This document shows, piece after piece, positions 13,011-14,030 of a DNA stretch of 14,855 nucleotides (position 1 is the first letter of the stretch; every line of letters starts with the position of its first letter). Where the stretch lies: the UHGV virus genome UHGV-1735138; one strand, 5' to 3'. A program made the translations under genes and the position numbers. The DNA is from a virus. Below the pieces are notes generated by a model. It had not been told where the DNA came from and did not search any database. It saw only the letters and a program-made list of their open reading frames with translations.

Positions 13011-14030
13011 ATGTCCAATATTAATTTGTTCGAAGATGTAGTGTCTTTAGAAAAACAACATCCAATGTATATAATGATGAAAGAAGAACGCTACAAACCG
13101 GAGAGAGAAGTAATCAATCAATGGGCAGAAGGATTTCAAGATCGAGACAATAAGTTTGCTAAAGAATTTCAAACAAGTTTTGAACCTTGTCTATGGGAAT
13201 TATATCTTTTTGCTTATCTGAAAGAATTAGGCTTAAGGTGCGATTTTTCATACGACGCTCCTGACTTCATTGTCAATGATCCAGAATTTTGCATTGAGGC
13301 AACTATTGCACTTCCAGCACAAGGAGACCTTGGTGCGCATGGTTTCAGAATGGAAGATATGCCGAGAGATTTTAATAAATTTAATTCTGAAGCATCTATT
13401 CGACTTAGTAATAGCTTTATATCAAAGGTTAAAAAATTAAGATCGAGATATTCTCTACTTCCTCAATGTAAAGAAAAACCTTTTGTAATCGCCATAGCTT
13501 CATTCGACAGACCTTTTGCACACTTTGCTGCAGCTAGGCCCATACTTGCAACATTATATGGTCTATATTATGATGAAGAGGCAACCATTGAATCAGGGGC
13601 AAAGAGTATAATTTCTTATAACGTCGATGCCGCAGTAAAAAAAGAAAATGTTAATATAGATATGGGGTTATTCTGTACACCTGCATATTCGGATGTAAGT
13701 GCTGTGATTTATAGTAGTTTAGCTACATGGGGAAAGGTAAGAGCCCTTGCGGACAACCCTTCAGCTTTCACGATTTATACATCATTTACTCCAAAGGAAA
13801 ATTCATTATATCCTGAAGTTCATCAAGCCACTAAAAGTGACTATGTAGAACACCTAGCGGATGGGTTATATATTTTACACAACCCATTTGCCAAGTATCC
13901 ACTGCCTAAAGATATACTAAGTCATCCAAGAATAGCGCAAGGTTATGTTGAGCCAGATGGATACGTTAATTTTATAGCGCCAGATGATTTTCTTTTATTG
14001 CGTTTTTTACAATCGTTAAATTTTAAATAG
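13011..14030 (+). CDS. Orphan hypothetical protein (339 aa), strongly AT-rich
   Basis: Long clean ORF with GAGGA ribosome-binding site; preceded by about 675 bp of AT-rich non-coding DNA; no TM segments; possible degenerate nuclease-like motif (APDFIV ... CIEAT) but no family recognised. Confidence 0.7.
   Translation: MSNINLFEDVVSLEKQHPMYIMMKEERYKPEREVINQWAEGFQDRDNKFAKEFQTSFEPCLWELYLFAYLKELGLRCDFSYDAPDFIVNDPEFCIEATIALPAQGDLGAHGFRMEDMPRDFNKFNSEASIRLSNSFISKVKKLRSRYSLLPQCKEKPFVIAIASFDRPFAHFAAARPILATLYGLYYDEEATIESGAKSIISYNVDAAVKKENVNIDMGLFCTPAYSDVSAVIYSSLATWGKVRALADNPSAFTIYTSFTPKENSLYPEVHQATKSDYVEHLADGLYILHNPFAKYPLPKDILSHPRIAQGYVEPDGYVNFIAPDDFLLLRFLQSLNFK

Follow-up and report, generated by a model that had tools for sequence, protein, structure and literature searches.

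A PD-T7-5-family gene with a nuclease-like fold, probably a phage defence, in the cargo slot of a lambdoid prophage

PD-T7-5 is a validated single-gene system against phage T7. It emerged as clone T7-74 from a T7-resistance selection, and its protein (RRM82777.1) was labelled 'Nuclease' (Vassallo et al. 2022, Nat Microbiol, PMC9519451). The gene was re-cloned as one open reading frame (ORF) with its native promoter, and all systems in that study lowered the plaquing of the selecting phage and left adsorption unaffected (Vassallo et al. 2022, PMC9519451). The prototype comes from Escherichia coli UMB0934, the strain from which PD-T4-1 was also cloned (Vassallo et al. 2022, PMC9519451). Published HHpred matches for PD-T7-5 cover residues about 49-108 and are weak: Hjc at 78%, FokI_C at 63%, PDDEXK_5 at 43% and RmuC at 41% (Vassallo et al. 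2022). In later papers, PD-T7-5 appears only as an entry among PD-(D/E)xK single-gene systems or as a count in surveys of genomes. The literature that we found on PD-T7-5 and PD-T7-1 consists of catalogues and surveys and includes no mechanistic study. Here we analyze a 339-amino-acid protein encoded by UHGV virus genome UHGV-1735138, whose whole stretch of 14,855 nucleotides we call the window. Its gene occupies positions 13011..14030 on the plus strand.

The protein belongs to the PD-T7-5 family. The PADLOC model PD-T7-5 (PDLC04110) matches it with E=1.8e-102 and 341 bits, aligning residues 4-335 to profile positions 1-340 of 346, and the PHROGs match is phrog_8571 (E=5.7e-89). In a protein database clustered at 90%, the protein has 720 homologues at E<=1e-3, and clustering at 50% identity gives 1076 representative clusters from many phyla. 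A first-pass annotation, made from the letters alone, had called the gene an orphan without a recognizable family, a view that these matches refute. Its proposal of a candidate defence gene is supported, given that PD-T7-5 is an established anti-T7 system. Judged from sequence, the gene is very probably a PD-T7-5-family member with a defence role. The family is already known, and the gene is an ordinary instance of it in a prophage, one that would show up in any run of PADLOC or DefenseFinder. Searches of Pfam (0 matches at E<=10) and NCBIfam (0) returned no match to the protein.

The protein resembles the PD-T7-5 prototype in length, residue numbering, single-gene organization and location on a mobile element. 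The published PD-motif matches from HHpred start at residues 83-84, in agreement with the numbering here. A common E. coli PD-T7-5 allele, found on at least 1000 contigs, is 89% identical to the protein and reaches 339 bits with the PD-T7-5 profile. In the 118UI chromosome, this allele and a PD-T4-1 (DUF3883) gene are ~7 kb apart (L001:4217-5419 and 12093-13115), and the island holding both is rich in IS3 and IS5 insertion sequences and located near tRNA-Ile. Since PD-T4-1 and PD-T7-5 were both cloned from UMB0934, this proximity suggests, circumstantially, that the validated prototype RRM82777.1 is the common allele or very close to it. The common allele thus occupies a chromosomal island rich in insertion sequences, whereas the gene described here resides in a lambdoid prophage slot.

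PD-T7-1 is homologous across the whole 339 amino acids (PDLC04073, E=5.7e-50, residues 3-325 aligned to profile positions 107-436 of 452). Weak PD-(D/E)xK hints of the same kind have been published for it, at PD-T7-1 residues 171-219. However, the PD-T7-1 profile scores far below that of PD-T7-5, and the N-terminal extension of PD-T7-1 (about 105 residues) is missing from our protein, which begins at the shared domain. We rejected an identification as PD-T7-1 because the alignment starts only at position 107 of the profile.

Many family members carry the NCBI/UniRef product name 'glycosaminoglycan attachment site', which no analysis here backs. This label conceals a validated defence family from text searches. 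The annotation of the gene should read PD-T7-5-family defence protein, rather than 'hypothetical' or 'glycosaminoglycan attachment site'.

The gene stands alone. We sampled 80 homologous loci from Gamma-, Beta- and Alphaproteobacteria, Bacillota, Nitrospirota, Acidobacteriota, Verrucomicrobiota, Cyanobacteria and Campylobacterota. Clustering of their ORFs revealed no conserved partner, immunity or antitoxin gene, and the largest co-occurring neighbour cluster was present at 6/80 loci. The immediate neighbours are heterogeneous, as befits a single-gene system, and include integrases, transposases, TIR and SIR2 proteins (ThsB, ThsA), HerA, Avs2 and DzbA, as well as IetA, AbiH, AbiEii and the toxins of toxin-antitoxin pairs. 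Surroundings of this kind are typical of defence islands and mobile elements. Plasmids carry homologues too, in 102 records. We rejected a restriction-modification system, as the window and the sister loci lack a methyltransferase and only 1/145 neighbours across the homologous loci is one.

The N-terminal half of the protein (about residues 1-175, 13011..13535, plus strand) is a non-canonical PD-(D/E)xK nuclease-like domain. The AlphaFold2 model of the protein has a predicted local distance difference test score (pLDDT) of 92.6 and a predicted template modelling score (pTM) of 0.92. The predicted elements comprise helix 58-72, strands 76-77, 86-89 and 93-100, helix 121-145 and strand 158-164, which is the canonical PD-(D/E)xK order. 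The core motif E63 ... P84-D85 ... E96-A97-T98 spans residues 63-98 (13197..13304, plus strand). This is exactly the segment that the first-pass annotation had likened to a PD-(D/E)xK core with threonine replacing the usual lysine, and the threonine (T98) is indeed there.

Conservation was assessed in an alignment of 124 representatives that are 31-55% identical to the query. E63, P84, D85, E96 and K139 are each invariant (124/124). Model and alignment together place E63 on helix 1, D85 at the start of strand 2 and E96 on strand 3, and the protein thus has the glutamate, aspartate and second acid on the elements expected of a PD-(D/E)xK enzyme. The canonical lysine two residues past the strand-3 acid is missing. 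At this position (98) our protein has T, and the representatives have V (61), T (50) or A (9), never K.

K139 (codon 13425..13427, plus strand) lies in helix 121-145 and is the candidate relocated catalytic lysine. We infer a putative active site of E63, D85, E96 and K139 from the invariance of these residues, the lack of K at position 98 and, by analogy, the lysine placement in the CdiA-CT Bp1026b tRNase. K242 of our protein, 98% conserved, remains an alternative candidate lysine.

Profile and structure comparisons were among the checks that the first-pass annotation had proposed. PADLOC and PHROGs supplied a family and the model a nuclease-like fold. No curated sequence model of a PD-(D/E)xK member matches the protein in Pfam or NCBIfam. 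A profile search of PDB sequences returned no nuclease, its only hits being chance matches to Bok and DNA ligase 4 (E>0.2). Foldseek against PDB gave no significant match. The top structural neighbour is the Mg-dependent PD-(D/E)xK tRNase CdiA-CT of Burkholderia pseudomallei 1026b (PDB 4G6V), and most of the other neighbours are DNases.

The active site of CdiA-CT Bp1026b consists of E187/D214/D223/K242, with the lysine 19 residues past the last acid (PMC9086364). The two proteins differ in other respects. They share 13% identity, and ours adds a 165-residue C-terminal domain. CdiA-CT is a toxin domain that is secreted and paired with a cognate immunity protein, whereas the window offers neither CdiA context nor an immunity gene. 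We rejected a CdiA-CT or toxin-immunity module, as no neighbour is conserved and the protein is free-standing, without fusion to a delivery domain. Compared with Shedu, Upx, HamA of Hachiman and NucC, the protein has no sequence similarity, its accessory domains differ, and there is no helicase or cyclic-nucleotide partner. An assignment to RmuC was also rejected. Pfam PF02646 does not match the protein, and the published HHpred value is the 41% given above. The Shield paper denied a shared fold (PMC10270631).

The C-terminal half (about residues 175-339, 13533..14027, plus strand) is a family-specific domain with no recognizable fold. Its conserved residues are K210, F221, K242, E280, D284-G285, N291-P292 and R331. 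Family members vary in architecture. One relative of 654 amino acids (P0148) has an N-terminal DUF4238 domain fused to a full PD-T7-5 domain. About 40 representatives are 440-480 amino acids long, many with a C-terminal extension of about 120 residues and some with an N-terminal one. A Pfam search of the N- and C-terminal extensions in these longer relatives gave no match. They may be alternative sensor modules.

The explanation that fits the locus best, and that is probably correct, is a single-protein immune nuclease carried as cargo by a lambdoid prophage. The N-terminal half would be a divergent, metal-dependent PD-(D/E)xK nuclease with the acidic triad E63 (helix), D85 (strand 2) and E96 (strand 3). 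K139, on the following helix, would most likely stand in for the lysine lost two residues past E96. The C-terminal half could sense infection or pick the substrate and would hold the nuclease harmless in uninfected cells, a gating role suggested by the lack of an immunity or antitoxin partner and of a methylase. Upon infection, the enzyme would cut phage nucleic acid, with DNA as the default guess and RNA as a possible substrate. The lysogen, and the prophage with it, would be protected by direct immunity or by abortive infection against superinfection, for instance by T7-like phages. We lean towards the nuclease mechanism in these particulars, with less assurance than towards the reading as a whole. 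The set E63/D85/E96/K139 and the C-terminal domain without a fold match offer targets for mutagenesis and structural work, which would be increments to a known system.

A more far-reaching version of this reading is that PD-T7-5 constitutes a distinct class of self-regulated immune nucleases. The K139-type core would be gated by a C-terminal domain of new fold that directly recognizes a phage-specific molecule (for instance a T7 protein or replication intermediate), and the substrate would perhaps be RNA. We consider this speculative and rather unlikely. If it is true, the window offers a naturally occurring allele, carried by a prophage, in which a new sensor fold could be dissected.

Alternatives to an immune nuclease that cuts phage nucleic acid can be ranked. 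The one that survives best keeps the family and the defence role and makes the protein an RNase, for example a tRNase, that acts through abortive infection. Once triggered, it would cut host or phage RNA and halt translation. We regard this as unlikely.

Much less plausible is a dead nuclease site, in which the lost lysine would have abolished catalysis and the protein would act in another way, for example by binding DNA or protein to block it or serve as a decoy. The residues found at position 98 fit this idea, as does the failure of every nuclease-family sequence profile to match the protein. Against it, the absolute invariance of E63, D85, E96 and K139 at 31-55% identity is what an active site would look like. 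PD-(D/E)xK enzymes with relocated lysines are moreover established, CdiA-CT Bp1026b being one of them.

The immune nuclease would sit at a site where related prophages exchange genes. The backbones of two E. coli prophages (GF43 and WND1) are 95-98% identical to the window and diverge exactly at the slot that holds the gene. Homology with GF43 ends at 12735 and restarts at 14244; with WND1 it ends at 12773 and restarts at 14254. The cassette replaced relative to the sister prophages (12736..14243) has a GC content of 0.356, and the PD-T7-5 gene is its sole ORF of at least 60 amino acids. In GF43 (L002:16216-18008), the slot encodes a 221-amino-acid GIY-YIG nuclease between ORFs of 65 and 134 amino acids. 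WND1 (L004:14212-14910) has an unrelated 232-amino-acid protein there, with a weak match to the DRT-associated membrane protein RTasTM (E=1.8e-5). Both slot genes are uncharacterized candidates for defence genes. As the sister prophages carry different genes at exactly this place, the slot between the replication module and Q is a variable cargo site, just as the first-pass annotation had supposed. With this gene, there is one more case of a lambdoid prophage whose fixed slot between these two landmarks takes interchangeable single-gene defences.

A phage life-cycle gene (a nuclease for recombination, repair or packaging) or a selfish homing-type nuclease is the least probable alternative: the gene is in a prophage, the GF43 cargo is a GIY-YIG nuclease and 16 genomes of temperate phages encode distant homologues (~26% identity), but sister prophages with backbones 96-98% identical do without the gene, most homologues are chromosomal or plasmid-borne beside defence and mobile-element genes rather than in phage modules, and a family member came out of a functional selection for phage resistance.

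A copy of the gene also lies outside prophages. The stretch 12919-14119, which comprises the gene, 92 bp before it and 89 bp after it, aligns at 85.4% DNA identity to a chromosomal, non-prophage copy that is present in 129 complete E. coli genomes. From this alignment we conclude that the gene and its own 5' region move together as one unit. The co-moving upstream block (12919..13010, plus strand) is the presumed native promoter region and contains the Shine-Dalgarno sequence GAGGA (13002-13006).

The gene starts with ATG and encodes 339 amino acids plus a stop codon. Its GC content is 0.357 versus 0.485 in the rest of the window, and its third-position GC content is 0.241 versus 0.496 in the prophage dnaB. 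The description of the gene in the first-pass annotation as a single, strongly AT-rich one with its own upstream non-coding region holds. There is no credible gene in the 420 bp upstream, and this gap grows to 676 bp, back to a divergent LprI-family gene, if a 69-amino-acid ORF (12381..12590) is discounted. Both RefSeq and the Logan gene caller leave this ORF uncalled. A sigma-70 scan upstream of the gene found no consensus promoter and a terminator scan downstream found none, with counts in both not above those in shuffled sequence. The tRNA was the sole match in an Rfam search, with no riboswitch or small RNA near the gene. The protein looks soluble, as had been proposed: it lacks a hydrophobic segment (the highest 19-residue Kyte-Doolittle mean is 1.05), and its grand average of hydropathy is -0.23.

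The window is a lambdoid prophage integrated at a tRNA-Ser, and the 339-amino-acid gene lies between its replication module and Q. It starts with tRNA-Ser(CGA) (14..103), followed by a tyrosine integrase, Gp157, a 738-amino-acid early-left protein, a CI-like repressor, and P22-Cro-like and YdaT-like proteins. Next come a replication initiator, DnaB, small nin-like ORFs and the minus-strand LprI-family gene. A second assembly (Logan ERR12256862, L003) encodes an identical 339-amino-acid protein at the corresponding position and extends past the end of the window: on the minus strand, a 201-amino-acid gene and an ImmA/IrrE peptidase, and farther out DUF1367, YbcO, the Q antiterminator, holins, HNH, terminase and portal. 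Cassette and slot are 98.8% identical between the two assemblies. The second assembly differs in its replication initiator and helicase module (window 7302-9555), and it encodes an intact 262-amino-acid ORF6N gene where the window has just an 85-amino-acid ORF (10793-11262). Such module differences are typical of lambdoid mosaicism.

A direct repeat of ~150 nucleotides encloses the LprI gene and the variable cargo slot. Its copies (left, 11193..11342; right, 14208..14357) are 83% identical and 3015 bp apart, and the right one bounds the slot. In each copy, a GC-rich hairpin (AAGGCCCTGtgagCAGGGCCTT in copy 1) precedes the 3' end of a minus-strand ORF. In copy 2 this is the real C-terminus of the convergent 201-amino-acid gene, and copy 1 is a remnant without an ORF. 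The repeat is also found in the E. coli WND1 prophage. It looks like a scar left by the insertion of a module or like a substrate of cassette exchange.

The minus-strand pair directly downstream of the slot (window 14276-14855 and beyond; L003:11266-12369) is conserved. It encodes the 201-amino-acid protein, which has a hydrophobic C-terminal tail and no Pfam or PADLOC match, and the ImmA/IrrE M78 peptidase, whose GF43 orthologue matches the CBASS regulator CapP (E=1.9e-25). The pair could be a damage-responsive regulator or a further defence module. On the other side, the slot adjoins a 307-amino-acid protein with a C-terminal LprI (lysozyme inhibitor) domain (11411-12334, minus strand). Its gene is antisense within the early-right region and conserved among the sister prophages, and PADLOC does not match it. 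The 738-amino-acid early-left protein (2390-4606, minus strand) gave no Pfam-A match in our scan. In a sister prophage, its RefSeq annotation is 'exonuclease family protein', and its assignment in a precomputed table is PF27430 YdfE_N.
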